A DNA stretch of 64,000 nt from Planctomycetota bacterium (GCA_038212275.1 JBBQUR010000021.1:24165-88164), one strand, 5' to 3'. Positions 5,468 through 64,000 are shown, numbered from the stretch's first letter. Program-made: numbers and translations. Notes: a model not told the origin generated them from the letters alone.

Positions 5468-5587
5468 CGTGCGCGTTCCATCATCCGTTCCGGGAATGGC
5501 GCGGAAGTGTATCACGCGCCCGTGAGCCAGGAAGGCTGACACGGCCGCGCTGCCGACGCCGGGCTTCGCCATGGCAGACTCTGCGCC

Positions 5588-7015
5588 ATGAGCGCGACGC
5601 GCGAGCAGGATCTCCTTGCCGAACTGGTGACTCTGCTCGGCGCGGACGCCGTCCTGCCGGACGCAGCCGCGAGGCTTGTCTACGCGCACGACGGCTCGAC
5701 GCTGCACCCCGCGACGCCACTCGCCGTCGTCTTCCCGACGAGCACGGCGCAGGTTGCGGCCGTCGTGAAGGCGGCCGCCGCGCGCGGTGTGCCCTTCGTC
5801 GCGCGCGGCGCGGGCACCGGCCTCTCCGGCGGCGCGATGGCCTCGCGCGGCGGTCTCGTCGTTTCGCTGCAGCGCATGACGGCCGTGCTCGCGGTGGACG
5901 CGCCCAACCGCCGCGCGATCGTGCAGCCGGGTGTCGCCAACCTGGCCATCTCGCGTGCCGTGGCCGCGCATGGCCTCTACTACGCACCCGATCCGAGCAG
6001 CCAGGCCGTGTGCACCATCGGCGGCAACGTCGCGCACAACAGCGGCGGCCCGCACACGCTGAAGGCCGGCGTCACGGTAAACCATGTGCTCGGCGTGGAA
6101 CTCGTGCTGCCCGACGGGCGCCTCGTGCGCCTGTCGTCGCAAGGAGCGGGGCCCGATCTGCTCGCGCTCCTCGTCGGCAGCGAAGGCACGCTGGGCATCG
6201 TGACCGAAGTCACGGTGCGCCTGATGCGGCGCCCCGCCGGGGTCGTCACGCTGCTGGCCGCGTTCCCGCGGGTCGAGCAGGCCAGCCGCACGGTGAGCGC
6301 GATCATCGCGAGCGGCATCGTGCCCTCCGCGCTGGAATTGCTCGACCGCACGGTGCTCGCGGCGCTGCAGGCCGCTTTCGGTTTCAGCTTTCCCGACGGC
6401 GCGGGCGCGCTGCTGCTCATCGAGGCCGACGGCCCGCTCGCCGGACTGGACGAGGAGTCCGCCGCGCTCGTCGCGTGCTGTCGCGAACACGGCGCGCTGT
6501 CGGTGGCCATCGCCCGCGACGCCGCGGAGCGCGACCAGCTCTGGAAGGCGCGCAAGCGAGCCTTCGGCGCGCTCGGGCGCATCGCACGCAACTACTGCAC
6601 GCAGGATGGCGTCATCCCGCGCACGGCGCTGCCCGCCGTGCTCGCGCGCATCGAGGCCATCGCCGCGCACCACGGCCTGCGCGTGGCCAACGTCTTCCAC
6701 GCCGGCGACGGCAACCTCCACCCGTGCCTGCTCTTCGACGATCGGGACAGCCGCGAGCGCGCTGCCGTCCGTGCCGCCGGCGAGGAGATCCTGCAGGTGT
6801 GCCTCGACGTCGGTGGCAGCCTCTCGGGCGAGCACGGCATCGGCATGGAGAAGCGACAGGCCATGGCACGGCAGTTCGCGCCCGCGGACCTCGCGTTCAT
6901 GGCGGCGCTCAAAGGCGCCTTCGACCCCGCAGGTCTTTGCAATCCGGACAAGATTCTGCCCACGGGCGGAAGCTGCCTGGAAGTTCCGCCGCGCCACCGC
7001 CAGATTCCCGCCTGA
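5588..7015 (+). CDS. glcD: Glycolate oxidase subunit GlcD-like FAD-linked oxidase
   Basis: RGAGTGLSGG, YAPDPSSQ-CTIGGNVA, GSEGTLGIVT, HAGDGNLHP, GEHGIG. Confidence 0.88.
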   Translation: MSATREQDLLAELVTLLGADAVLPDAAARLVYAHDGSTLHPATPLAVVFPTSTAQVAAVVKAAAARGVPFVARGAGTGLSGGAMASRGGLVVSLQRMTAVLAVDAPNRRAIVQPGVANLAISRAVAAHGLYYAPDPSSQAVCTIGGNVAHNSGGPHTLKAGVTVNHVLGVELVLPDGRLVRLSSQGAGPDLLALLVGSEGTLGIVTEVTVRLMRRPAGVVTLLAAFPRVEQASRTVSAIIASGIVPSALELLDRTVLAALQAAFGFSFPDGAGALLLIEADGPLAGLDEESAALVACCREHGALSVAIARDAAERDQLWKARKRAFGALGRIARNYCTQDGVIPRTALPAVLARIEAIAAHHGLRVANVFHAGDGNLHPCLLFDDRDSRERAAVRAAGEEILQVCLDVGGSLSGEHGIGMEKRQAMARQFAPADLAFMAALKGAFDPAGLCNPDKILPTGGSCLEVPPRHRQIPA

Positions 7016-50253: not shown

Positions 50254-50430
50254 GAGTGCATCCGGAAGCCTGCGAAGAGCCCCAGCTTAGCCGCGAGAGC
50301 GCCGGACCCGACTCCATGGAGTTGCATCGGGCTGGATGTGTGATGTTGAGGCACTGCCTCTACATCACACGGGGCGGCGAGCGGTGCATGCGGAGAGGTC
50401 TCTCGCGGAGTCTTCCGGCGAGGGATCGCG

Positions 50431-50537
50431 GAGATCCCGGGACCGCGGAGATTCCGCGGGCGCCGGAGATTCCGGGGGCGCCGGCGATTCCGGGGGCGCT
50501 TGAGATTCCAAGGGCGCCGGCGATTCCGCGGGCACTC
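50431..50537. repeat. Intergenic 18-bp tandem repeat, 5 copies plus 1 degenerate
   Basis: G(A/C)GATTCC-GGGCGCCG units at 50448, 50466, 50484, 50502, 50520; no spacers. Confidence 0.88.
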
Positions 50538-51900
50538 AGTTGCGCATCGACTGGATGGGCGCGGGGACCTGGCCGCCGCGGCGGGCGAGGATCGCCGAGG
50601 ACCACTTGTGCACGGGCATGATCGGCGCGGTGCCGAGCAGGCCGCCGTACTCGATCTGGTCGCCGGCCTTCGCGCCCGGCACCGGGATGATGCGCACGGC
50701 GGTGGTCTTGGTGTTCACCATGCCGATGGCCAGCTCGTCGCCGATGAGGCAGGCCAGCGTCTCGGCCGACGTGTCGCCGGGCACGGCCACCATGTCCATG
50801 CCCACGGAGCAGACCGAGGTCATGGCCTCCAGCTTGTCGAGCGAGAGCGCGCCGACGTTCACGGCCTCCACCATGCCGGCATCCTCGCTCACCGGGATGA
50901 AGGCCCCCGACAGGCCGCCGACGTGCATCGCGGCCATCGCGCCGCCCTTCTTCACGGCATCGGTGAGCAGCGCGAGCGCCAGCGTCGTGCCGTGCGTCCC
51001 GGTGCGCTCCAGGCCGATGAGCTCCAGCACGTCCGCAACCGAGTCGCCCAGCGCCGGCGTCGGTGCGAGCGAAAGGTCCACGATGCCGAAGGGCACGCCG
51101 AGGCGCGCGGCCACCTCTCGCCCCACCAGCTCGCCCATGCGCGTGATCTTGAAGGCGGTGCGCTTGATGACGTCCGCCAGCGTGCCGAGGTCCGCAGTCG
51201 GGCCCAGCATCGAGATGGCGTGGCGCACGACGCCGGGCCCCGAGACACCGCAGTGCAGCACGAGGTCGCGCTCGCCGGTGCCGAGGTTCGCGCCGGCGAC
51301 GAAGGGGTTGTCCTCGACCATGTTGCAGAAGACCACCAGCTTGGCGCAGCCGATGCCGCCCGCGTCCGCGGTGAGCGCGGCGGTCTCCTTGATGATGCGC
51401 GCCATGAACAGCGTCGCGTCCATGTTGATGCCGGCGCGCGTGCTGGCCAGGTTGACGCTGGCGCAGACGTGCTTCGTCGCGGCCAGCGCCTTCGGGATCG
51501 AGCGCATGAGGCGCATGTCGCTGCGTGTCGCGCCCTTCTGCACCAGCGCCGTGAAACCGCCGATGAAGTCGACGCCGCAGTCGTCCGCCGCGCGGTCCAT
51601 CGCCACCGCGATCGGCGTGTAATCCTCCTCCGGGCACGCCGCCGCGACGAGCGCGATGGGCGTCACCGCGAGCCGCTTGTTGACGATCGGAATGCCGAAC
51701 TCGTCCTCCACGGACTTCGCCGTGGCGACGAGATTGCCGGCCACCGACACCAGCTTCTCGTGAATGCGTTTCGCGACGTCGTGCACGGAGCCGCCGGCGC
51801 AATCCAGCAGGTTCACGCCGAGCGTGGTCGTGCGGATGTCCAGGTTCTCCACCTGGAGCATGCGCAGCGTCTCGAGGATTTCGGTGTGGGCGAGGCTCAT
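50536..51900 (-). CDS. DUF711 / UPF0210 ('PFL family') protein of unknown function
   Basis: [88 protein letters not shown]-terminal PAPIQSMRN. Confidence 0.93.
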
Positions 51901-52045
51901 GGGTTTGGATTGCCCGTCAAGAGTTCCGCGGAGCGGCGTCTCGCGGGATGACGCCCCGCGAGAGTCGGCGATGCTCGCCCGCGCTCAACGCCACCGCAAG
52001 GGGGCGCCTCACGAGGACATCACGCGCCGGGCCTGAGCCAGACCC

Positions 52046-52264
52046 TCAACGACGCTTCTCGAGTCGCCGCGTCACCTGACTTCATGGCTTTGCCCCACCG
52101 GGGTTCTTGCGGTGTGCCGCGAGGCCACGATCGAGCTCGCGCTTCTGCGCGGCCGTCACAGGGACCGATTCGGGCGACTTCGCGATGCTGTCCCAGAGTT
52201 CCTCGACGAGGCGCAGCCGCTCGTTGACAGGAAGCGTGAACAGCGGCTTCAGCCGGGGGTGCAT
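52046..52264 (-). pseudogene. Addiction-module antitoxin component (TIGR02574-like) with in-frame TGA at a Trp position
   Basis: LPVNERLRLVEELWDSI-QKRELDR-NP-KP*SQVTRRLEKRR*; the family usually ends PW-x-V-x-RL. Confidence 0.72.
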
Positions 52265-52434
52265 GCGCGCATCATCCTCCGACGCGCACGGAGGCGCAAG
52301 TTGCGGGTTGCGTCATGCTTGCCGCTCGGTCGGTGCCGCCGTGCTCAACGGCGGCGTGCACCATCGCACCGCGACTCATGGTTCCGCGACACGACGCCGT
52401 GCTCGATGGTGCCGCGCCTGATCGTGCCGCCGCG

Positions 52435-55400
52435 CTACGGCGCCGTGAGCGAGAGGGTCCAGGAGTTCAGGGTGCCGGTGTCCTGCGCGGCGACGTCGAC
52501 GACTTTCAGCTTCCAGGCGCCGGCGATGGACTTGCCGGTGAAGGCTGACAGCGAGGCGGCCGGGACCGTGAGGTCTGGGTACTCAGTGTTGATGTTGTCG
52601 GTGCCCGCGCCGGTCTGGTTGTGCAGCAGCACCGTCGTGCCGTCGGGCGCGATGAGCATCACCTGCAGGTCACCCTGGTAGGTGTGCGTGATGCCCACCT
52701 TGACCTTCACGCCCGCCACCGTGCCGGTCTGCGCGAAGGTCAGCGTCGAGGTGACGCCCGTCGCGTTGTTGTCGGGAATCGCGACGTTCGGGCTGGCCGA
52801 TTGCTCACCGTTGAAAGTGATGGTCCACGAGTTCAGCGTGCCGACGTCCGCCGACGCGAGGTCCTGGACCTTGAGGCTCCAGTTGCCCGACGTCGACTTG
52901 CCGTTGAACGCGGTCAGCGCCTGCGCCGCCGCTGTCGCCACCGAGAACGTGGTGATCACGTTGTCGGCCGAGCCGCCGGTGCGGTTGTGCAGGATCGCCG
53001 ACGTGCCGTCAGGCCCGGTGAGCGTCAGCACGAGGTCGCCCTTGTAGGTGTGCGTGACGTTCACGCCGACCGACACCGAGCTGACCGACTGCGCCGACGA
53101 CACGGCCTGCGTGCTGGTCACGCCCGTCGTGTTGTTGTCGGGGATCGCGACCGCCGGCGAGACCGAGTAGGTCTGCACCGAGGCGCCGCCGCCCGCCGGA
53201 TTGATCGTCAGCGAGACGACCGCGGTGTGCGACAGCGCGCCCGACGTCCCGGTGACCGTGATCGCCTTGACACCCGTGCTCGCGCCGGCCGTCGTGCTGC
53301 ACGTCAGCACCGACGAGCCGTTGGCGGCCATCGGATTGGGCGCGAAGCTGTAACTCACACCCGAGATCGCCGGCGACGCCGACAGCGAAATGCTGCCCGC
53401 GAAGCCGTTGAGCGCCGTGTCGGACAGCGTGAAGTTCGCGCTGCCGCCGGCCGTCACCGTCGCCGAGCCGGGGCTGGCCGCCAGCGTGAAGTCGGGACTG
53501 GCCGCCGCGTTGATCGTCAGCGAGACGACGGCGGTGTGCGACAGCGCGCCCGACGTGCCCGTGATCGTGATCGTCTTGAGGCCCGTGCTCGCGCCCGCGG
53601 TCGTCGTGCAGGTCAGCACCGACGAGCCGTTGGCCGCGAGCGGATTCGGCGCGAAGCCGAAGCTCACGCCGGAGATCGCAGGCGAGGCCGAGAGCGTGAT
53701 GCCGCTCGCGAAGCCGTTCAGCGCCGTGTCCGACACGGTGAAGTTCGCGCTGCCGCCGGCCGTCACCGTCGCGGAGGACGGGCTGGCCGAGAACGTGAAG
53801 TCCGGCGCCGGCGCCGACGTGCTCGCGTTGCAGATGACCAGCGCGAAGTCCTGGTCCGTGGTGTCCGCGTTGCCTGGCACGCCGTCGCCCGCGATGTTCG
53901 TCGCGCGCACCGTCACCGAGTAGCTGCCCGACGTGCCCGCCGGCAGCGTGACGGCCTCGGTGTTGTTGCGCGTGTCGGCCGAGCCGCCCGTGATGGAATT
54001 CGCGCCGGAGAACACGTTGCCGCGGTACAGCGTGCCGTTCACCGTGACCTCGAGGTCGAGGTTGTTCACGTAGGCGTTGCCCGTCGTCGGGCCGGGCGCA
54101 TCGGTCCACGCGAGCACCACGCGGAAGGGCTGGGCCGAGGTGGCGATGCTGCCGCTGCTCACGTAGGTCGCGCCCGTCGCAGCGAGCACCTGGCTCTGGT
54201 CGACGTAGACGCGCGGCGTGCTGTCGAAGGCGCGCCCGAGGTTCACGAGGCCGAAGCCCTGATTGTTCGAGAACAGCGTGTCGTTGGCGTACACGCCGGT
54301 CATGTACGTGGTCGAGTCGATGAGCCACGCCTTGAGCAGTGCGGGGCTCGGCGTGCCCAGACCGTTGTTCGCGAACCACTGCCGCAGCAGCGCGCACGCG
54401 CCGGAGATGGCCGGCGTCGCGTGACTGGTGCCCGAGGACCACGCGTAGAGCGTCTGCCCCGTCGGCCAGTACTTGTTGCACACGCCCGTGCCGTCGTATC
54501 CGGTGGCGCGGCTCGCGGCGCCCTGGATGTGCGTGCCGGGCGCGCAGATCTCGGGCTTCTTGCGCGCGTCGGAGGTCGGCCCGCGCGACGAGAAGTTGAT
54601 GATGTCCAGCGCGCTGCTCGCGCCCGAGTTGGCGACGCCGCAACCGTCCGAGCCGGTCTGGCGCCAGTTCTCGCCGGCGCCCACCGTGATGATGTTCTTG
54701 GCCGTGCCCGGCGGGTGCACCGTCGACGCGCCGGGGCCGCTGTTGCCCGCCGCGAACACGATGGCGAGTTCCTGGTTGCCGCCGGTCGCGCTCACGGCGT
54801 CGCGCACGAGCTTGTCGTGCAACTGGCTGTCCGTGTTGTACGTGGTGCCCGACGTGAAGCCCCACGAGTTGGACGAGATGCGCGCGCCGGCGTTGTAGGC
54901 ATTGGCCAGGCGCACGTTCGCCGGCTGGTTGAACACGCCCGCGCCGGAGTTCGCGAAGACCTTGCTGTTGCCGACCTTCACCCAGGGCGCGACGCCGAGG
55001 CCGTAGTTGTAGAGCAGGCTGTCCTCGAAGGCCGTGCCCGTGCCCGCGTTGTAGCCGCCGATGATCGAGGCGTTGATGTTGCCGTGTCCGGCCTTGCTGT
55101 CGCCGAGCGCGTCGCCCGTGTAGTTGTTCGAGTACACGTAACGGCTCGCGCCGCCCGACAACCCGTCGACCTTGAACTCCACGTTCACGTCGCTCGTGCT
55201 GCCCTTGTCCACGCCATCATCGGTGACGTCCACGCTGAACGGGAACGGATTGACGCCTGGGAAACCCTTGCTCGCCAGCCAGGCGAGGTAGCCGGGGCCG
55301 CTGGGCTGCGTGCCCGCCGCGATGACGTTGCCGGCCATGATCTGGCCCTGGCGCTCATCGAGCATCTGCGGCACGAGCTTCGGCTCGATCGCGAAGACGC

Positions 55401-56271
55401 GGCTGTCGCGGCTCAGCTCCAGCACGCCGCGGCCGTCGAGCGACAGGCCGATGTTGATGTAGTCGAGCACCGGATTGGGCGCGTCGAGCAGACGCGTCGC
55501 GTCACGCGCCAACTCGGCGGCGAAGGCGACGCCGTCGGCGTCCGCGATGAGCTGCACGATGACCCGGTACGTCGTCGCGCCGGCCAGGAACGGCGGGCGC
55601 AACTCGGGGCGCAGCTTGAACGCCGGGGCGTAGGTCGACGTGGCGAGCAGCCAAGGCTTGTCCGCCAGCGCGGCGAGCGCGGCATCGGCCGCTTCATCGA
55701 CGCGCACGACGTAGGCGTTGTTCGGCACGTAGCTCACGACGAGCGCGCCGGTCTGGCGCAGCGAGGCGAGCCACTCGTCCTTCACCGGGCCTGCGAACTG
55801 CACGAGGCGCAGGCGATGCGTGTCGCCGGGGAGCGGCTGCTCGCCGCGCAGCTCCGCGGGAATCGTCGCGAGGACGTCCGCGGTGGCGTCGGCGTCCGCG
55901 CCATTCAGCAGGAAGCCGTTGAGGTTCACGAGCGTGCCGTCGTCGGCGAGATTCACGCCCATGAAGCGGAGGCCGTCGAGGTCGCCGACGCTCGGGCCAT
56001 CGACGACGACGAGCACGAACGAGTCGTAGTCTTCAGTCGAGACGATCGCATCGAGGCCGACGAGCAGCGCGAGCGCCGGATCGTCCTTGCGCAGCAGCAC
56101 GCGGTGCAGCGGCCCGGACGCGACGAACCCTTCCGGAATCGCGAGCGCGCCCGCGTCCTCTTCCGGCGCCGGTGGGCCGGCCTCCGCTTTCACTTGCGCG
56201 CCGACATGCACGGCAAGAACGAGGAAGGCAACGAACGAAAGGGCGAACGCGGAGAGACGCAACGCACGCAT
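52435..56271 (-). CDS. Secreted S8 subtilase with Ig-like repeats and two proprotein-convertase P domains
   Basis: Signal peptide; triad VTDDGVD / GHGN / SGTSHATP, AAGNSG; two about 101-aa PDFT-ASP-SATVTAGG repeats; two IPDNN-HTY-GDL-GTLNSW P domains. Confidence 0.92.
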   Translation of the reverse strand: MRALRLSAFALSFVAFLVLAVHVGAQVKAEAGPPAPEEDAGALAIPEGFVASGPLHRVLLRKDDPALALLVGLDAIVSTEDYDSFVLVVVDGPSVGDLDGLRFMGVNLADDGTLVNLNGFLLNGADADATADVLATIPAELRGEQPLPGDTHRLRLVQFAGPVKDEWLASLRQTGALVVSYVPNNAYVVRVDEAADAALAALADKPWLLATSTYAPAFKLRPELRPPFLAGATTYRVIVQLIADADGVAFAAELARDATRLLDAPNPVLDYINIGLSLDGRGVLELSRDSRVFAIEPKLVPQMLDERQGQIMAGNVIAAGTQPSGPGYLAWLASKGFPGVNPFPFSVDVTDDGVDKGSTSDVNVEFKVDGLSGGASRYVYSNNYTGDALGDSKAGHGNINASIIGGYNAGTGTAFEDSLLYNYGLGVAPWVKVGNSKVFANSGAGVFNQPANVRLANAYNAGARISSNSWGFTSGTTYNTDSQLHDKLVRDAVSATGGNQELAIVFAAGNSGPGASTVHPPGTAKNIITVGAGENWRQTGSDGCGVANSGASSALDIINFSSRGPTSDARKKPEICAPGTHIQGAASRATGYDGTGVCNKYWPTGQTLYAWSSGTSHATPAISGACALLRQWFANNGLGTPSPALLKAWLIDSTTYMTGVYANDTLFSNNQGFGLVNLGRAFDSTPRVYVDQSQVLAATGATYVSSGSIATSAQPFRVVLAWTDAPGPTTGNAYVNNLDLEVTVNGTLYRGNVFSGANSITGGSADTRNNTEAVTLPAGTSGSYSVTVRATNIAGDGVPGNADTTDQDFALVICNASTSAPAPDFTFSASPSSATVTAGGSANFTVSDTALNGFASGITLSASPAISGVSFGFAPNPLAANGSSVLTCTTTAGASTGLKTITITGTSGALSHTAVVSLTINAAASPDFTLAASPGSATVTAGGSANFTLSDTALNGFAGSISLSASPAISGVSYSFAPNPMAANGSSVLTCSTTAGASTGVKAITVTGTSGALSHTAVVSLTINPAGGGASVQTYSVSPAVAIPDNNTTGVTSTQAVSSAQSVSSVSVGVNVTHTYKGDLVLTLTGPDGTSAILHNRTGGSADNVITTFSVATAAAQALTAFNGKSTSGNWSLKVQDLASADVGTLNSWTITFNGEQSASPNVAIPDNNATGVTSTLTFAQTGTVAGVKVKVGITHTYQGDLQVMLIAPDGTTVLLHNQTGAGTDNINTEYPDLTVPAASLSAFTGKSIAGAWKLKVVDVAAQDTGTLNSWTLSLTAP
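53200..53805 (-). repeat. Two about 303-bp internal repeats in the S8 protease
   Basis: PDFTFSASPSSATVTAGGSANFT...HTAVVSLTIN occurs twice. Confidence 0.85.
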
Positions 56272-56513
56272 GCCACACTCCCGAAGTGAGGGCAACTCCC
56301 GAAGTGAGAGCCCGTGGCCGGGAGCCTATGCCACCTCTTTCCGATCGGGTACTGGAATCAGCAACCAAATCGAAAGGATCCGCAGCCCCGCATGAACAGC
56401 GCACGGCCCCGAGCAACTCGCATGCATGCGACCGGTTGGCGGGCGCCGCGCCCATCAAGCAAGCTGCGTGCCTCGCGATGACGCCGGATATGAGTCGGGG
56501 CGACTCGAACCCG

Positions 56514-56975
56514 TTACGTGCGCGCCCGGTGGGCGGCCATCCAGCGGGTCCAGCCGACGAGCGTGAGCCCGAGGGCGAGCAGGACCGCGCCGTAGGCATA
56601 CCAGCGCAGCTCGACAAGGGCCGTCAGGTCATGCTTGCGATCAGCCTGTCGCATGATCTCCCGGTATTTCAATCGCTCGGCCTCCGCGACACGGGCCCGC
56701 ACGTCGGCAAGCTGCTCCTGGTCTTGCACCACGGAGTGCTCCAGTGCCTCCTGCTCGACACGCATCGATATCGACGCCTTCATCGACTCCTGCATCCTGA
56801 GCAGACTCGCCGTCCAGGCCTTGGCTGCGTCGTTCACGACGCGCTCGTAGCCGAACACGACGGTGGCCAGCAGCACGGCGCCCGCGAGGACCAGGCACAC
56901 ATGGAAGGCATCCATCCTCGGCCGCGGCGGCGGAGTCGACGTCGGAGTTGACGTCGGCGCGAGGGAGGCGTTCAC
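56514..56975 (-). CDS. Hypothetical membrane protein (2 TM flanking a coiled coil)
   Basis: Hydrophobic segments CLVLAGAVLLATVVFGY and YAYGAVLLALGLTLVGW; no family recognised. Confidence 0.55.
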   Translation of the reverse strand: MNASLAPTSTPTSTPPPRPRMDAFHVCLVLAGAVLLATVVFGYERVVNDAAKAWTASLLRMQESMKASISMRVEQEALEHSVVQDQEQLADVRARVAEAERLKYREIMRQADRKHDLTALVELRWYAYGAVLLALGLTLVGWTRWMAAHRART

Positions 56976-57015
56976 CGGCAGCCATCCCTCCCGGTGGCCG
57001 GCCGACGGAGTCGTC

Positions 57016-57552
57016 TCATCCCAGCCGGTGCATCGCGGTGAAGACGCGCTCGTCGATGACCGTGACGACGTAGTCGTTCGGTTCGGAGAGCGCCTTCAGC
57101 GCGTCGCGATAAGCGGCGAAGCTCTGGCCGCTGCGCGAAATGTCCACCACGAGGATGGCGTTGAAGTAGCCGCCGGTGATGCGCTGGCTGACGTCCTGGA
57201 TGTCGCCGCCAAGTTCGCCCACGGCGCCGGTCAGTTCGGCCATGACGCCGGCGCGGTTCACGCCGATCGCCGTGACGATGATCGTGCCCGGCGTGCTCGA
57301 GGCCGTGAATGGCGCTTCGCGCTGGCCGGCGATCACCGCGTCGGTGGCGGCCTGCGCGGCGCCCGCCGTACCGCGCCCCGCGCTGCCGCCCGCACCACCG
57401 GCCCCGCCGCCCGTCGCCTCGACGAACTCGATGCCGCGCCGCCGCGCCAGTTCGCGCGCCGAGGCGGTGATGGTCGTGTTGTCGTCGATGACGAGCCGGC
57501 CGCCCTCGGCCATCGCCGCCACGTCCTCGGCCATGATGATCGTGCGCGGCAT
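57016..57552 (-). CDS. UPF0237-type ACT-domain protein fused to an N-terminal BMC-associated module
   Basis: C-terminus IIVTAIGVNRAGVMA-IQDVSQRITGGYF-VFTAMHRL; N-terminus IIMAEDV-TTITASARELARRRGIEFV. Confidence 0.82.
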   Translation of the reverse strand: MPRTIIMAEDVAAMAEGGRLVIDDNTTITASARELARRRGIEFVEATGGGAGGAGGSAGRGTAGAAQAATDAVIAGQREAPFTASSTPGTIIVTAIGVNRAGVMAELTGAVGELGGDIQDVSQRITGGYFNAILVVDISRSGQSFAAYRDALKALSEPNDYVVTVIDERVFTAMHRLG

Positions 57553-57557
57553 GCGGC

Positions 57558-58091
57558 TCAGCTCCGGAGTGCGGGGGACGAGTTCGCGCGCGGCATGAGC
57601 CCTGGCCCCGCCGCGGGCAGCGTCGAGACGGCGCGCCCGCGCTCGATGCGCACGAGATACAGCCCGTCGGGCAACGACTCGAGGGACGAGGCGGCGCCAG
57701 CACCCGCTCCCGCACCAGCAGCAGTCGCCGCGCAGCTCGCACCGGCGAGCGCCGGCGAGCTCGCGCCACACGTCGCGCAGCCTCCGGAACAACCGGCGGA
57801 GCCGCAGCGCGCGCAGGCCGCTGAGGACGCGCGGCCTGCGGTCGCGGCGCACGCGGGTTGCTCCACGAAGGCGGGCACGCCGCCGCGCGCGGCGGCGGCC
57901 GGCAACGCGTTGCGAGCGGCGCCGGACGACATCGGTGCGCCTGCGGCCTCGCCGTCCTCCACGATCGCGATGCCGAGGCGCATGGCGCGGTCGCGCGCGG
58001 AGGGCGTGATGAGCGTCGCGCCGTCGAGCACGATGCGCGCGCCGCAGCGGCCTTCGAGCACATCGCGGTCCGTGATGAGGCGCTTGCTCAC
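57558..58091 (-). CDS. Hypothetical BMC-associated Cys-rich protein
   Basis: GTG start overlaps the BMC-T stop; N-terminus RLITDRDV-TLITPSARDRAMRLGIAIV; CARCGSAGCSGGCATC cluster; C-terminus LPDGLYLVRIERG. Confidence 0.72.
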   Translation of the reverse strand: MSKRLITDRDVLEGRCGARIVLDGATLITPSARDRAMRLGIAIVEDGEAAGAPMSSGAARNALPAAAARGGVPAFVEQPACAATAGRASSAACARCGSAGCSGGCATCGASSPALAGASCAATAAGAGAGAGAASSLESLPDGLYLVRIERGRAVSTLPAAGPGLMPRANSSPALRS

Positions 58092-58732
58092 TGGCCCAGG
58101 ACCGCGGCCAGGTCGTCGTGCGGACGGGCGATGACGACGCGGCGCACGAGCATGCCGGCGCGCTCCGCGTCGGCGGCGCCCGCGGCCACGGCGGCCTCCA
58201 CGTCGGAGACCTCGCCGGTGAAGGTCACGTAGCTCTTGCCGCCGATGCCCACCGCGAGCTGCAGGCCAAGCAGGCGCAGCGACGCGGTCTTGGCCGCGAC
58301 GTCCGCCGCGCGGATCGTGCTCGCCACGGAGAAGGTCTCGATGACGCCGACGGCGTCGAGGCGCACGGGCGGCGTGCGCACCGCGCCGCGCGCGCCGGGC
58401 TCTGTCGCGCCGGCGTCCGACGTGCCGCCGGGGCCGGTCGCGTGCCTCACGAGCGCAAGCAGCGTCGGCTCGAGGTTGGGGATGAGCAGGCTGTCGATGA
58501 GGCTGTCCGCGCCGGTCTCCGCGCCGCGGCGCAGCGCGGAGGTCGTGTCCTCGACCGTGCCGGTGAAGAGGATCACGAACTTGCCCGGCGACACGGTGCG
58601 CGCGAGCAGCAGCTCGACGGCCGCTTCCTTGCGCAGCGCGTCGACGGTCTCGAAGCCCGCCGCGATGGAGGCCAGCTCGAGCAGCGCGACGCAGGGACCC
58701 GTGCCGCCGACGACTCCGTGACCCGTGCTCAT
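58088..58732 (-). CDS. BMC shell tandem-domain protein (BMC-T, PduT-like)
   Basis: [22 protein letters not shown] and [48 protein letters not shown]. Confidence 0.9.
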   Translation of the reverse strand: [214 protein letters not shown]

Positions 58733-59058
58733 GGAGCGCCTCCGCCCACCGGGATGCGCTCGCCGTGTTCACCCAGTTCGAAAACGCCGCCGTCGGCCAG
58801 CGAGATGCTGTCCACGATGGCGACGACCGCCACCTGCCAGCCGAGGTCCTGGCTGCCGAGCACCGTGCGCGCCGCGCGACCGAAGGCCACGAGCACCGTC
58901 TCGCCGATGCCGGCGCCGAGCGTGTCGCCCGCGACGACGATGTCCTGCGACTCCGTGTCGGCCGTGGTGAACGGCCGCACCATGAGAAAGCGCATGCCTT
59001 CCAGGCTTGCGTCCTTGCGCGTGGCCCACACGTTGCCGACGACGCGTCCGACCAGCAT
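58729..59058 (-). CDS. BMC vertex pentamer (BMC-P, EutN/CcmL family)
   Basis: MLVGRVVGNVWATRK-L-G, D-LGAGIGETVLV-G-AAR, VVAIVD. Confidence 0.93.
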   Translation of the reverse strand: MLVGRVVGNVWATRKDASLEGMRFLMVRPFTTADTESQDIVVAGDTLGAGIGETVLVAFGRAARTVLGSQDLGWQVAVVAIVDSISLADGGVFELGEHGERIPVGGGAP

Positions 59059-59059
59059 G

Positions 59060-59350
59060 TCAGCCGAGCTCCGGGCCGGTGTGGCTGTCCACCACGGCGA
59101 CGACGGCGGCCTCGACGGCGATGTCGTGTCCCTGCCCGATGGCGGTGCGGCCCGCGCGGCCGTAGGCGACGATGACGTCGTCACCGACGCCCGCGTCCAC
59201 CGTGTCGGCGGCGACGACGAGGCCCTGCTTCTTGCCGCCGGGAAGACGCGCGGCGACTTCGTGCGGATCCACGAGCAGCAGCTTGAAGCCCGTGAGGGTC
59301 TCGTGCCGCCGCGTGGCCCAGATCTCGCCGATGACGCGTCCCGTGAACAT
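59060..59350 (-). CDS. BMC vertex pentamer (BMC-P, EutN/CcmL family)
   Basis: MFTGRVIGEIWATRRH-L-GFKLLLV, AADTVDAGVGDDVIV, AAVVAVVD. Confidence 0.93.
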   Translation of the reverse strand: MFTGRVIGEIWATRRHETLTGFKLLLVDPHEVAARLPGGKKQGLVVAADTVDAGVGDDVIVAYGRAGRTAIGQGHDIAVEAAVVAVVDSHTGPELG

Positions 59351-59375
59351 GTGTGTCTCGCTGGCGCGGCGCCGC

Positions 59376-60005
59376 TCAGCCGCGTCCTTCGTTGGGCTTG
59401 CCGTCCACGTCGGCCAGCGCGCTCTCGATCGCGGCCACCGCCTCGCGGATGTGGCTCTCCGTGCCGCCGAGCTGCAGTCGCCCGAAGGCGCCGTAGGGCT
59501 GCAGGTGGATGAGCTTGATGGGCGAGGCCTTCTCGGCCTCGTTGGCGGCGATGGTCACGTAGGCCGCCGGATGCACCTCGAGGATGTAGAGCGTCTCGCC
59601 GCCCAGCAGCATCATGCCCTGGCGATTCCGGTTGATGAGCATGGTCTGGTAGTCGTCCACGCCCGTGATGATCTCGCTGGTGAGCATCTTGGGCTTGAGC
59701 CGGTCCAACTCCTTGGCGCCGAGATATTCCAGGATGGCGCGCCCTGCCTCGAGCACCTCGGCCTGGCTCTCGTCGTGCACCTCGAGCAGGCCGAAGGCGC
59801 GCTCGACCACCTGCACCGCGGGCTTCACCGACGTCGCCTTCAGCGCGATGTCCGTGACGCGGTTGATGGCGATGCCGGGCGAGATCTCCACGTAGAGCGC
59901 GGCCTGGCCGCGCACCGGCAGGTAGCCGCGCGCCGTGCTCGCCACGAAGCTGGCGAACTGCGGCTGCATGCTGTCGAGAAATGTGTAGGCGCGAAGCTGG
60001 ACCAT
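59376..60005 (-). CDS. BMC shell double-stacking trimer (BMC-T dp; CcmP/CsoS1D-like)
   Basis: [57 protein letters not shown]. Confidence 0.92.
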
Positions 60006-60020
60006 GGAATCTCGCGGTGG

Positions 60021-60042
60021 GCCGCGCGACGCATCGCGCGGC
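60021..60042 (-). promoter_or_regulatory. Perfect 9-bp stem, 4-nt loop hairpin 15 nt upstream of the BMC-T(dp) start
   Basis: gccgcgcga-cgca-tcgcgcggc. Confidence 0.5.
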
Positions 60043-60138
60043 GGACTTCAGGACGACGGGAGCCGATGCTCGCTGCAACGACATCCCTCCGCGTCAACGC
60101 GCGGGCTGCCGACGCGGCTGGACTCCGGCGCGGCGCGA

Positions 60139-60174
60139 CGGCGTGCGTGCGGCATGACGCCGCGACGCACGCCG
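60139..60174 (-). promoter_or_regulatory. 15-bp stem-loop about 30 nt downstream of the BMC-H stop (no U-tract)
   Basis: cggcgtgcgt-gcggc-atgac-gccgc-g-acgcacgccg. Confidence 0.5.
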
Positions 60175-60203
60175 GCCTCAGGCCGCGCGCGGAGCGGGCA
60201 GCA

Positions 60204-60494
60204 TCACTCCGGCAGCGCCTGCGGCTGCGGGAGGATGGACTCCACTTCGCTGTGCGGACGCGGGATCACGTGAACGGAGACCAGTTCGCCCACGCGACGC
60301 GCCGCGGCGGCGCCGGCGTCGGTCGCGGCCTTCACCGCACCGACTTCGCCACGCACCATCACGGTGACGTAGCCGCCGCCGATGCGCTCCTTGCCGATGA
60401 GGGTCACCTTGGCGGCCTTCACCATCGCGTCCGCAGCTTCGATGCTGCCGACGAGGCCCTTGGTCTCGATCATTCCCAGTGCGATCTGGCTCAT
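60204..60494 (-). CDS. BMC shell hexamer (BMC-H, PduA/EutM-like)
   Basis: [56 protein letters not shown]. Confidence 0.96.
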
Positions 60495-60540
60495 GCGTGG
60501 TCAGTTTCCGCCGGCGCGAAGCCGGCTCTCGAGAAAGGAA

Positions 60541-62307
60541 TCAGGTCCGGTATTTCATGGGGCGCGGCGTCGGAATCGCGCCGCCCTCGTAAGGCGGCTT
60601 GGTGCGCGACGCCGGAAAAGCAGGCGCGGAGTCTGCCGCACCGGCGCCCGCACCGGCGCCGGTGCCGGATGGGCCCGCGCCGCTCGCGCCGGAGCCCGTC
60701 GCGTGGCGCGGGTCTTCACTCGGGCGCTCCGCGAAGGGCGAGCTGGGATGCACGGGATTGCCCTGCCACGCCGGGTGATCCGCGTTGAGCGCGTTCGCGG
60801 CGGCGGGCAACGGCGCCTTCGGTGCCGTCATGCCCGGCGTACCGACCGAGCCGGAGCTGCTCGCGGCGCGCACGCCCGGCGCCGGCGAGGCCGGCAGCGC
60901 GGTGAAGCTCAGCGCCTTGGGCGGGCCCTTCGCAAAGTCCGGGAAGCTCTCCACGAAACCCTCATACACGTAGCCGACGTGCTTCACGAGCACGAGGTTG
61001 TGCGCGGAGATGTTGTCGGACGTGATGTTGCCGCCGAAGGCACCGCAGCCCAGCGTCATGCTCGGCACGAGACCGGTGCCGAAGCCCACCGCGCCCTGCG
61101 CCGACGGCGCGTTGATGAGGATGCGGTGCGTGGGCTTGTCCATCACGAAGCGCCAGATGATCTCTTCATCGCGGCTGTGGATGGACAGCGTGTGGCCGCG
61201 CCCGCCGAAGTTCAGGATCTCGATGCAGCGCTCGCAGCCGGCCTCCCAGCCGTCCTCGCAGTAGACGCTGAGAATCGGCGAGAGCTTCTCGACAGAGAGC
61301 GGGTGGTCCCAGCCCACGCCGGTTTCCTCGGTGAGCAGCACCGTGGTCGTCTCGGGCACCGAGAAGCCGGCCATCTTCGCGATCTGATGCGGGTAGAGGC
61401 CGACGATGTCGGCGTTCACGCGCCGGCCGCGCACGACGATGGCAGACAGCTTGGCGCGCTCTTCCGGCGTGCACCAGTGGGCGCTGTTGCGCGTGAATTC
61501 CTCGCGCACCGCGGCGTAGATCGGCTTGTCGATGACGACGCTCTGCTCGCTCGCGCAGATCGTGCTGTTGTCGAAGGTCTGGCTGCCGACGATGGCGCGC
61601 ACCGCGTGGTGGATGTCCGCCGTGCGCTCGATGTAGGCCGGCGCGTTGCCCGGGCCCACGCCGTACGCGGGCTTGCCCATGCTGTACGCCGCGCGCACCA
61701 GGTCCGGGCCGCCGGTCGCGAGGATGAGCGCCGTCTCGCGCGCCCGCATCGCCTCGTGCGTGCCCTCGAGCGTCGGGGCACTCATGCAGAGGATGAGGTC
61801 ATCGGGCGCGCCCTCCTGGCGGGCGGCCTCGGCCAGGATGCGCGTGGCCTCGCCGATGCACCTCACGCCGCGCGGGTGCGGCGAGATGACGATGGAGTTC
61901 CGCGCCTTGACCGAGATGAGGATCTTGAACATCGCGGTGCTGGTCGGGTTGGTGATGGGCACGATGCCCAGCACCACGCCGTAGGGCTCTGCGACCTGGT
62001 AGTAGCGGCGTGCATCGTCACGCGATATCACCCCCACCGTCTTGAGATCCTTCAGGCTCTGCCAGAGCATGTCCGTGCAGAATTTGTTCTTCTGGTACTT
62101 GCCCGCCACGGAACCGAAGCCGGACTCCTCCACCGCGAGGCGGGCGAGCTTCTCGCTGGCCTGACTGCCGGCGCGGGCCATCGCCTCGCAGATGCGGTCC
62201 ACGCGGGCCTGGTCGAAGGACTTGAACGTCTGCCACGCCTTGCGGCTGCGACGGACAAGGTCCCGGGCCTCCTGAATGCTGCGCAGATCGGCGTCGGCAA
62301 GAATCAT
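60541..62307 (-). CDS. Acylating (CoA-dependent) aldehyde dehydrogenase, EutE/PduP/AdhE-N-like, with a long C-terminal extension
   Basis: PITNPTST, ISPHP, LATGG, GVGPGN, FDNSTICASEQ (catalytic Cys), EKLSPIL, GHT, PSMTLGCG-GGN-SDN. Confidence 0.92.
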   Translation of the reverse strand: MILADADLRSIQEARDLVRRSRKAWQTFKSFDQARVDRICEAMARAGSQASEKLARLAVEESGFGSVAGKYQKNKFCTDMLWQSLKDLKTVGVISRDDARRYYQVAEPYGVVLGIVPITNPTSTAMFKILISVKARNSIVISPHPRGVRCIGEATRILAEAARQEGAPDDLILCMSAPTLEGTHEAMRARETALILATGGPDLVRAAYSMGKPAYGVGPGNAPAYIERTADIHHAVRAIVGSQTFDNSTICASEQSVVIDKPIYAAVREEFTRNSAHWCTPEERAKLSAIVVRGRRVNADIVGLYPHQIAKMAGFSVPETTTVLLTEETGVGWDHPLSVEKLSPILSVYCEDGWEAGCERCIEILNFGGRGHTLSIHSRDEEIIWRFVMDKPTHRILINAPSAQGAVGFGTGLVPSMTLGCGAFGGNITSDNISAHNLVLVKHVGYVYEGFVESFPDFAKGPPKALSFTALPASPAPGVRAASSSGSVGTPGMTAPKAPLPAAANALNADHPAWQGNPVHPSSPFAERPSEDPRHATGSGASGAGPSGTGAGAGAGAADSAPAFPASRTKPPYEGGAIPTPRPMKYRT

Positions 62308-62315
62308 GCGCCGCG

Positions 62316-62321
62316 ATGTTA
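62316..62321 (-). promoter_or_regulatory. Putative -10 box (TAACAT) 8 nt before the first BMC-operon gene; probable leaderless start
   Basis: Minus strand reads ccc-TAACAT-cgcggcgc-ATG with no SD; the same geometry is seen at several other genes. Confidence 0.5.
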
Positions 62322-62458
62322 GGGATCCGCAGCGGGGCGGTCCAGCGGAGGAAGTTGCCGACCGCGCTCCGCAGAAGTTCCGCGCGCCATCCGCTCGGGA
62401 TCAGAGGGCGATCGGCGCGCGATCCCGCCCGGCACACGCGGAGTGCGCGAGCTGCCGG

Positions 62459-62866
62459 TCACGGCAGCGGGCGGATGGTGACGCGCCCGGACAGCCCCTC
62501 GCCCGTCGCCCGGTCCGGGTCGCCGACGGCCACGGCAACCCGCTGGCCGCCGCGCCACACGAAGGCGACATTCTCCGCGAAGGCCAGCGTGCCACCGAAT
62601 CTCTCGTACTCGGGCGCACGGACCTCGCCCAGCCGCGCGCCCGTCGCGCCGGAGAAGAGCTGCGCCAGCGGCCGCGAACTGCGTGCGCTCACGGCGACGT
62701 CCGTCGTGCCGTCGCCATCGATGTCCGGGAGGACGATGATCCGCGTGCCGAAGCCGCTCACGCCGTCCGGCGCGGGCAGCGTGCGCACCGGCGCCACGCA
62801 ACCACAGTCGAGCGCTGCGCAGAACACGAACGTGGCTGACCAAACCACGGAGCGATCCAGATTCAT
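62459..62866 (-). CDS. Small exported FG-GAP/integrin-alpha-repeat-like protein
   Basis: SD GAGGAGG; signal with GC; FG-LPDIDGDGTTDVAVSA, LFSGATG, RFG-VAVGDP-GRV. Confidence 0.65.
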   Translation of the reverse strand: MNLDRSVVWSATFVFCAALDCGCVAPVRTLPAPDGVSGFGTRIIVLPDIDGDGTTDVAVSARSSRPLAQLFSGATGARLGEVRAPEYERFGGTLAFAENVAFVWRGGQRVAVAVGDPDRATGEGLSGRVTIRPLP

Positions 62867-63063
62867 GCACCTCCTCATGCCGCCAGCGCCGCATCGACCT
62901 CGGCCAGCACGTGGTCACGCCAGCCATCGCGGCATGGCGGTTCGACGGCGAAGGCGGAGCAGAACGTCCCGGGCGGCCCGGCGAACTCCGGACGCGGATG
63001 AAGCGCCGCCCAGCGCGCGGCGGGCAGGACGAGCACGGACCAGAGTCCGGGCCGATCGCCAGG

Positions 63064-63119
63064 CCGCCGACTCGCCGACCCGCCGACCCGCCGACCCGCC
63101 GACCCGCCGACCCGCCGCA
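63064..63119. repeat. 8-bp tandem repeat (CCGCCGAC) x7 in a divergent intergenic region
   Basis: Read directly from the sequence. Confidence 0.88.
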
Positions 63120-63248
63120 CGCGGCCGAATGCTCAGTCCGATGCTGCGATGGCCGATGAGCCACGCTAGAAACCTCCGCATCGCGCCCGGCATCCGAAGC
63201 GACACTCCGGCGGCCGCTCTCGGGCCCGCCCCGATTAGGATCATCACC

Positions 63249-63845
63249 ATGCGCATCCTCATCCCGCTGCTCATGCTCGTCCTGCTTCTCTCCGTCTGGG
63301 GGTTCACCCGCACCATGGCTGCTCAATCCGCTCCGAAGACTTCCGCCGACAGCTCCGCGCTCGGCGACCTGCCCGACCCGAACGCCCCCGAGGTCACGGT
63401 GAGCCTGCTCGACGACAAGGGCGAGCTGACGGGCCCGCTGACGCTGAAGAAGATCGTGCGCAGCGAGGAGGCGTGGAAGGCGCGGCTGAGCGCCGAGGAG
63501 TTTCACGTGGCGCGCGAGCAGGGCACGGAGCGCGCCTTCTGCGGGCTGCTCGTGGACCAGCACGAGGACGGCCTCTACACCTGCCGCAGCTGCGGCCTGC
63601 CGCTGTTCTCCAGCGAGCACAAATTCGAGTCCGGCAGCGGCTGGCCGAGCTACTTCGCGCCTGTCGCGAAGGAGAACGTCGTCGAGCACCGCGACGTCAC
63701 GCTGGGCATGGTGCGCACGGAGATCGTCTGCGCCCGCTGCGACGCGCACCTCGGCCACGTCTTCGACGACGGCCCGAAGCCGACGGGCCTCCGCTACTGC
63801 ATGAATTCCGTTTCGCTGAAGTTCTATCCGCGGGCGACCGCCTGA
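63249..63845 (+). CDS. msrB: Peptide-methionine (R)-S-oxide reductase with N-terminal signal/anchor
   Basis: [58 protein letters not shown]. Confidence 0.93.
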   Translation: [198 protein letters not shown]

Positions 63846-63890
63846 GCCCTGCGCGTTCCAACCGAACCACTTCCTGAGGGGAGAAACACC

Positions 63891-64000
63891 ATGTCCGCAT
63901 TCCTGAAGAGCATCGGCCTGGGCCCAGCACTGCTTGCCGGCGCTGCGCTGGCCGTTATCGCCGGCGCCGGTTTCCTGACTTCCGGCGCGGGCGCGGCGCC
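63891..64000 (+). CDS. 5' end of an exported protein, truncated by the window
   Basis: SD-like GAGGGGAG; MSAFLKSIGLGPALLAGAALAVIAGAG signal-like sequence, open to the window end. Confidence 0.55.
   Translation, partial: MSAFLKSIGLGPALLAGAALAVIAGAGFLTSGAGAA

Follow-up and report, generated by a model that had tools for sequence, protein, structure and literature searches.

Conserved membership of a GlyXS-GlyXL (UPF0237-DUF711) gene pair in a bacterial microcompartment operon of Planctomycetota

The stretch studied here, 64,000 nt of a Planctomycetota bacterium (GCA_038212275.1 JBBQUR010000021.1:24165-88164; called the window below, always at its full length), carries on its minus strand a bacterial microcompartment (BMC) shell operon that runs from 62307 down to an ACT-domain gene ending at 57016, and further on the same strand a gene of the DUF711/UPF0210 family (50536..51900). 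We find the link between DUF711 and the shell operon to be real and conserved. The first-pass annotation of this DNA had proposed such a link, and membership of DUF711 in the operon is indeed kept across Planctomycetota when homologous loci are scored for adjacency. It had also proposed a new BMC class, and this part has to be given up: what we have is a known compartment type in a variant form, together with a portable enzyme module that had not been recognised before. We consider it probable that the stretch holds the main operon of a MIC3-type metabolosome from a Phycisphaerae-like planctomycete, with glyXS and glyXL as its conserved last genes, and that a tethered GlyXL handles an aldehyde in the lumen.

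The names GlyXL for the DUF711 protein and GlyXS for its UPF0237 partner come from Price et al. (PLoS Genet 2026, PMC13759103). According to that work both genes are needed in B. breve and M. maripaludis when glycine is absent, and under aerobic conditions an E. coli glyA mutant is rescued by the two together. Glyoxylate is the product that the authors put forward; a transaminase would then aminate it, and a transaminase was also required in B. breve. DUF711 belongs to the ten-stranded barrel superfamily of glycyl radical enzymes (PMC4390871), while GlyXL is described as working aerobically and without radical residues. Its positively charged pocket comprises R22, R75, R403 and E339 (B. breve numbering), and a co-folding model by the same authors puts glyoxylate in this conserved Arg pocket (PMC13759103). 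The view, given in the first-pass annotation, that DUF711 has no assigned reaction is out of date.

The conservation of the link was followed in 41 genomes of the same order, the window's own genome (G000) included. The ACT fusion described below was strongly matched in 17 of them, and the same 17 carry five BMC-P genes. DUF711 was detected in 16 of the fusion-bearing genomes, the seventeenth being only 58% complete, and the pair of BMC-P genes was present exactly in those genomes that have the fusion. In all 15 relatives having DUF711 the gene comes after ACT, with both on one strand, at a distance of 39-146 bp in 14 of them and of 1.7 kb in the other (G006). The two BMC-P genes are found about 1.3-3.3 kb upstream of DUF711 in 14 of the 15, where both share one contig. 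The six related loci that were fetched all have the same order: acylating aldehyde dehydrogenase (AldDH), BMC-H, BMC-Tdp, two BMC-P, BMC-Ts, a small protein, ACT and DUF711.

The window itself departs from this order by 5115 bp between the ACT stop and the DUF711 start. This interval is filled, on the same strand as the operon, by an open reading frame (ORF) of 153 aa (56514..56975) with hydrophobic, membrane-like stretches and no family match, and by a gene for a secreted-type S8 subtilase of 1286 aa with two proprotein-convertase P-domains (52435..56295; PF00082, 127.6 bits; PF01483, 147 bits). The 153-aa ORF is absent from the six fetched loci and from the four closest further loci (L013-L016), and the subtilase is absent between ACT and DUF711 in the relatives. 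Judged by the relatives, the window has the common operon, into which about 5 kb have been inserted between ACT and DUF711. Hence the operon should not be regarded as ending in the ACT gene, as was initially annotated; in relatives the last gene is DUF711.

Further we surveyed the neighbourhoods of the best 80 DUF711 loci in a species-representative collection. The closest are from Planctomycetota/Phycisphaerales (73-84% identity), and all 15 Planctomycetota loci among the 80 have shell genes and the fusion upstream. No shell genes or fusion were found near DUF711 in the other 65 (Bacillota, Methanosarcinales, Geobacter and relatives, Synergistota and a spirochaete), where it should be noted that some contigs are short; a plain ACT gene of about 90 aa stands directly upstream of DUF711 in 28 of these 65. 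In a control phylum, centred on the genome holding locus L091, DUF711 was found in 75 of 301 genomes, of which 71 were scanned (excluding the centre genome and three others whose matches were weak or partial). BMC-P occurs in seven of the 71 and near DUF711 in none: either the contigs differ, or 117 and 252 kb lie between.

Within an evenly drawn sample of 401 Planctomycetota genomes, 53 have DUF711. In 28 of them, belonging to eight family groups, it sits directly behind a module-bearing ACT gene and/or a shell gene. In two more it has been moved off by an insertion, with the fusion still at the operon end (5.1 kb in G000 and about 18 kb in G284), two are ambiguous, and 21 are without a link, with a plain or doubled ACT gene upstream in some and none in others. 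These calls combine BMC-P positions with gene flanks; BMC-P adjacency alone undercounts the linked genomes. The separation in G284 is a second and independent one, again leaving the fusion in the shell operon. A tandem protein with two ACT domains precedes some of the unlinked genes (L100 2577-3179; L105 2082-2735; L125 4799-5389).

In a DUF711 tree of 85 sequences the 20 linked sequences all fall on one side of a branch, and the SH-aLRT value of that branch, 92, is below the starred level. The linked clade is set apart from the 65 others by three positions only (M201V, C300T and I371V).

The link is also seen outside complete operons. Three genomes of other planctomycete families carry a bare cassette of BMC-Ts, the glyXS fusion and DUF711 (L130 12388-14829; L131 6083-8590; L132 6267-8649), with no match to another shell gene within 12.8-20 kb. 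BMC-Ts is the shell gene closest to glyXS-glyXL in every linked architecture for which the upstream flank was read, these stand-alone cassettes included. The arrangement recalls the satellite 'EUT modules' in which EutL travels with EutABC and extends HO/SPU compartments (Sutter 2021, PMC8217296), as in both cases a shell gene travels with an enzyme set; it differs from them in the enzymes, and in that Ts-glyXS-glyXL is usually integrated in the main operon.

The ACT gene of the window (57016..57552, minus strand) encodes a fusion protein of 178 aa, laid out as an N-terminal module (aa 1-45, 57418-57552), a disordered linker (aa 49-85) and the ACT domain (aa 90-177). It matches PF13740 at 34.9 bits (cut-off 23) and NF001220 (UPF0237) at 63.2 bits, below the cut-off of 74, with residues 91-177 covering positions 4-90 of 90. 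Aligned with 28 canonical GlyXS proteins, the ACT domain matches them over their whole length, with G97, Q123, F171, M174, H175 and R176 invariant, and it matches PDB 1ZPV (E 1.9e-8). The alignment supports the earlier assignment to the UPF0237 type, and the protein can be called a GlyXS orthologue. The nearest clusters in the ESM Atlas are planctomycete ACT proteins (0.93-0.94); a Myxococcota cluster at 0.85 is a lead only.

GlyXL of the window (454 aa, minus strand) matches PF05167 at 590.2 bits (cut-off 25) and NF003700 at 692.4 bits (cut-off 440). Its residues 7-454 align to 6-446 of PDB 2HA9 (E 5e-161), leaving no extension, and the planctomycete DUF711 proteins of this kind are 62-68% identical to Bacillota and archaeal ones. 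R23, R76, E339 and R403 are each invariant in at least 84 of 85 aligned sequences, that of the window included; they were equated with the B. breve pocket residues by position only, the B. breve sequence being outside the alignment. By these alignments both proteins are orthologues of the canonical pair, and the pocket proposed for the substrate is intact. GlyXL thus resembles the canonical forms in its length of 454 aa and in its pocket, as GlyXS does over the whole ACT domain. The differences from the system of Price et al. (PMC13759103) lie in the N-terminal module and linker of GlyXS, about 85 aa, in the placing of the genes in a shell operon with an acylating AldDH, and in the 5115 bp that separate the window pair, where the described genes are adjacent. 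Neither 'microcompartment' nor 'Planctomyc' occurs in the text of PMC13759103.

What sets the fusion apart is the module of about 45 residues. It was found on each of the 18 aligned linked fusions, while the 28 canonical ACT proteins all lack it, so that the BMC-type N-terminal module suggested by the first reading does exist. The small protein encoded just before the fusion has the module too, and a module profile searched against the six-frame translation of the genome found only these two operon proteins (E about 1e-19), the next match being at E 0.076. Single-sequence matches of the module in NCBIfam are weak (E 0.004-0.009), and a PDB sequence search with the fusion gave nothing meaningful for the module beyond the ACT domain match. 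Profile comparison by hhalign of 20 modules with E. coli EutQ gave a probability of 92% and an E-value of 6.5e-7, aligning module positions 3-48 with EutQ 2-50. This makes the module a homologue of the N-terminal part of EutQ that binds the shell; GlyXS has gained it.

In an AlphaFold2 (AF2) model of the fusion, residues 4-45 form a small alpha/beta domain (pLDDT 93-96 for 1-45) with the order strand-helix-strand-strand-helix-strand; a disordered linker comes next, and then the ACT domain, which is modelled confidently as well. With such a mini-domain the module is not a classical single-helix encapsulation peptide. In Salmonella, residues 1-99 of EutQ are reported to link shell and cargo and to suffice to target GFP to the Eut compartment; the authors model H1-H2 as binding the EutM/EutL interface and H3/H4 as binding cargo peptides (Sci Adv 2025, PMC12487888). 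By alignment the module corresponds to the H1-H2 part. It differs from that linker in that the fusion has no cupin domain (PF06249) and no detected counterpart of the peptide-binding H3/H4 part, and in that the module is here fused to an ACT domain and, separately, to the small protein. The EutQ-like module, here on a subunit of regulatory type, may be a portable anchor to the shell, unlike the classical encapsulation helices.

The gene content and positions first reported for the shell operon were borne out by ORFs and Pfam/NCBIfam matches, all on the minus strand. Window genes were chosen by third-position G+C together with these family scans, the window having a G+C content of 71%. From 62307 to 57016 the order is AldDH, BMC-H, BMC-Tdp, BMC-P, BMC-P, BMC-Ts, small protein and ACT fusion. 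AldDH (60541..62307, 588 aa) matches PF00171 at 71.7 bits and the EutE-like model TIGR02518 at 553.6 bits, below its cut-off of 620; its core spans residues 5-446, and residues 447-588 (60541-60966) are a Pro/Ala/Gly-rich tail of about 140 aa, in which the motifs GNP.HP.SPF and the terminal KPPYEGG.IP...KYR are kept within the family. The BMC-H shell hexamer protein (60204..60494, 96 aa; PF00936, 102.4 bits) is 87-99% identical to family relatives. It is followed by the CcmP-like tandem-domain protein BMC-Tdp (59376..60005, 209 aa; NF053796, 269.7 bits over 3-206 of 213, below the cut-off of 340), the two BMC-P (59060..59350, PF03319, 76.4 bits; 58729..59058, PF03319, 84.4 bits) and the PduT-like tandem-domain protein BMC-Ts (58088..58732, 214 aa; two PF00936 stretches, 120.5 bits). 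The small protein (57558..58091, 177 aa, with a GTG start at 58091) has no family match other than to the hidden Markov model (HMM) of the module (E 3.7e-19), and begins with the EutQ-like module; a Cys-rich linker that varies comes next, and the C-terminal part has the conserved motif LPDG.YLV.I..GR. It was at first labelled a Cys-rich protein, but the cysteines are not kept among its orthologues.

This set of genes was compared with the catalogue of Sutter 2021 (PMC8217296), in which MIC3 is a type of unknown function, listed among the metabolosomes with AldDh but no obvious aldehyde-forming enzyme. MIC3 occurs in Planctomycetes, as do the closest DUF711 loci. Its main locus has AldDh, two BMC-P, BMC-H, BMC-Ts and a CcmP-clade BMC-Tdp, all of which are in the window, and a satellite with a BMC-P triplet and a PF00596 aldolase, which makes five BMC-P in all, as in G000. 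Its AldDh likewise has a long flexible C-terminal extension and no classical encapsulation peptide, and the HMM table of the catalogue holds an ACT model, 'act_1_acimic3', for ACI and MIC3 loci. The shell gene set, the five BMC-P, the satellite and the AldDH tail together fit MIC3, hence the locus is not a new class.

Some differences from the catalogued type should be noted. MIC3 has two BMC-H where the window has one; a second copy was found in the loci of the f2 family and of a second planctomycete clade (clade B). The tail of the window AldDH has the linker and no cysteine, whereas in nine clade-B loci it ends in a 4-Cys domain of about 40 aa, as in MIC3, and in the f2 family the tail is short. 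The PF04909 amidohydrolase of the MIC3 main locus is not among the window operon proteins, the PF04909 matches in G000 being on other contigs (C4 and C16). PF05167/DUF711 was not found in the part of the supplementary files of Sutter 2021 that was searched. A literature search gave no paper linking DUF711 to microcompartments and none of a functional kind under UPF0210, UPF0237 or DUF711; MIC3 together with Planctomycetes returned only the Sutter catalogue and its preprint, and GlyXL/GlyXS only the GapMind paper as relevant work.

The satellite locus of G000 lies on another contig (C13), where three PF03319 genes (L011 9961-10958) form the BMC-P triplet and a class II aldolase gene follows them (L011 11368-12330; PF00596, 152.6 bits). 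In four same-order genomes without DUF711 (L093-L096, all that were fetched) the operon is a short one, (H)-AldDH-H-Tdp-Ts-small protein followed by unrelated genes, and both the BMC-P pair and the ACT gene are absent. The small protein is thus encoded in short operons as well. The BMC-P pair, glyXS and glyXL co-vary, coming and going as one set, which marks the pair as an add-on. GlyXS/GlyXL therefore behaves like a functional module that plugs into a base compartment associated with an aldolase, and is not the sole possible signature enzyme.

For the mechanism we suggest that the module would fasten GlyXS to the shell on its inner side, possibly through the neighbouring BMC-Ts, and that GlyXS in turn would hold GlyXL, which has no extension of its own. 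GlyXL might then form or use glyoxylate, or another aldehyde, in the lumen, and the EutE-like AldDH could use NAD+ and CoA to turn the aldehyde into an acyl-CoA; with glyoxylate as substrate this would be oxalyl-CoA. In the first-pass annotation the ACT-DUF711 complex was suggested as a possible encapsulated signature enzyme; the pair may have this role, with the satellite aldolase as a rival and with sister operons that do without the pair. The aldehyde-related role that was suggested for DUF711 has become plausible because GlyXL-GlyXS is proposed to form glyoxylate (PMC13759103), a product inferred from genetics. The conserved operon adds support for GlyXL handling an aldehyde, as it joins GlyXS/GlyXL with shell proteins and an acylating AldDH. 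Further, we speculate, as a tentative possibility only, that the MIC3-type compartments of Planctomycetota are glyoxylate organelles, in which GlyXL, a non-radical relative of the PFL/RNR barrel enzymes, is held at the shell by EutQ-anchored GlyXS and glyoxylate is turned into oxalyl-CoA by AldDH. If so, metabolosomes would have a new class of signature enzyme, and the gene context alone would be independent evidence that GlyXL handles an aldehyde. GlyXL/DUF711 is among the most conserved enzymes without a known reaction, and its glyoxylate product comes so far from genetics only; with MIC3 lacking an obvious aldehyde-forming enzyme, two open questions meet at this locus.

A number of observations weigh against this proposal. 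The base operon exists without the pair, which argues against DUF711 as the only signature enzyme, the satellite of G000 couples the BMC-P triplet to a PF00596 aldolase, which makes the aldehyde in other compartment types (Sutter 2021, PMC8217296), and 21 of the 53 DUF711-bearing planctomycete genomes have no link. GlyXL is without a targeting extension in the 2HA9 alignment, a GlyXS-GlyXL complex is only postulated, and the glyoxylate product was deduced genetically in other organisms (PMC13759103). The host has SHMT, malate synthase and isocitrate lyase (the glyoxylate shunt), so that GlyXL would be needed neither for glycine nor as the only source of glyoxylate, and with SHMT present a biosynthetic need for the pair is not evident. 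PduL was not found in G000, a 91% complete genome, which leaves cofactor recycling without explanation. We know of no AldDH of this family that acts on glyoxylate. Of an oxalyl-CoA route, oxalyl-CoA decarboxylase (TIGR03254) and family III CoA-transferase (PF02515) were likewise not found in G000. Malate synthase is present in 33 of the 41 same-order genomes, with no tie to DUF711.

The satellite class II aldolase is a serious rival to GlyXS/GlyXL as signature enzyme. It may be that the aldolase alone makes the aldehyde and that GlyXS/GlyXL stay outside the shell, co-regulated to feed or drain the pathway or to balance C2 compounds and glycine, the module being regulatory or of use in assembly only. 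The triplet is found in 39 of the 41 related genomes, as against 17 for the BMC-P pair with the fusion, although the aldolase beside it is confirmed in G000 only; short operons do without GlyXS/GlyXL, DUF711 has no extension, and MIC3 and related types are described with the PF00596 aldolase (Sutter 2021, PMC8217296). It is however difficult to see on this explanation why a module of the shell-binding type was gained only in the linked lineages, or why the fusion remains in the shell operon where DUF711 has moved away (G000 and G284). The BMC-P pair co-varies with GlyXS/GlyXL, and the Ts-glyXS-glyXL cassettes tie the pair to a shell gene with no aldolase nearby. On balance we hold this explanation to be rather unlikely, and prefer that of a tethered GlyXL acting on an aldehyde in the lumen.

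Even with GlyXL at the shell, the aldehyde need not be glyoxylate. GlyXL-GlyXS could release another one, for instance acetaldehyde from a glycine-forming cleavage, which AldDH would convert to acetyl-CoA, and the compartment would then be no glyoxylate organelle. The best match of AldDH, sub-threshold as given above, is to a model of acetylating acetaldehyde dehydrogenases, and the genetics show a need for glycine synthesis and do not show the product (PMC13759103). However, the transaminase requirement in B. breve and the glyoxylate co-folded in the Arg pocket (PMC13759103), which is conserved here, speak for glyoxylate, and the alternative is our own reasoning; we think it improbable. Least credible of all, in our opinion, is a neighbourhood without functional meaning, in which DUF711 is merely near a shell operon in one lineage. 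In the window the genes are indeed 5.1 kb apart with unrelated genes between, and the unlinked planctomycete genes would agree with it, but adjacency is kept across eight family groups and in three architectures, the fusion is specific to linked genomes, and none of the 71 control genomes shows the link. The comparative counts already contradict this explanation, and the conserved operon with glyXS and glyXL as its last genes is retained.

A single DUF711 gene and a single BMC-H locus were found in G000, a genome of 4.65 Mb. Logan contigs of run X1 match 50342-53458, 53434-53767 and 53743-60333 with zero differences and span both insertion junctions, so that a second assembler gives these junctions too; as X1 probably is the source sample, the support is not independent. 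The Logan contigs of X2 and X4 gave short pieces only. A scan of 50300-64000 found no promoter-like sites, and four terminator-like sites where 4.4 were expected, and is uninformative. The contig ends with the window, 1.7 kb upstream of AldDH, and an MsrB-type gene is the only gene in between.

Some neighbouring genes were also noted. A gene of the Glu/Leu/Phe/Val-type dehydrogenases lies directly upstream of AldDH in six family loci (L013 3217-4953; L005, L008, L014, L015 and L016). This glutamate dehydrogenase type was considered as cargo and rejected, having no real N-terminal extension and no module; in G000 it is on another contig (C8:8518-9954, near the end). The window has, at 5540-7012 and 43.5 kb from DUF711, a FAD-linked oxidase gene of the GlcD/D-lactate dehydrogenase type (PF01565 and PF02913), which is possibly relevant if glyoxylate or glycolate is involved. 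After DUF711 a GH2/PA14 gene is found in the window and likewise in one fetched relative locus. Behind DUF711 the second planctomycete clade has conserved genes (L026 11447-16084 and syntenic loci) for an HD-domain response regulator, an MFS transporter, an AAA_28 protein and a DUF481 protein, and in both planctomycete clades the operon is preceded by PBP2 and RodA genes.

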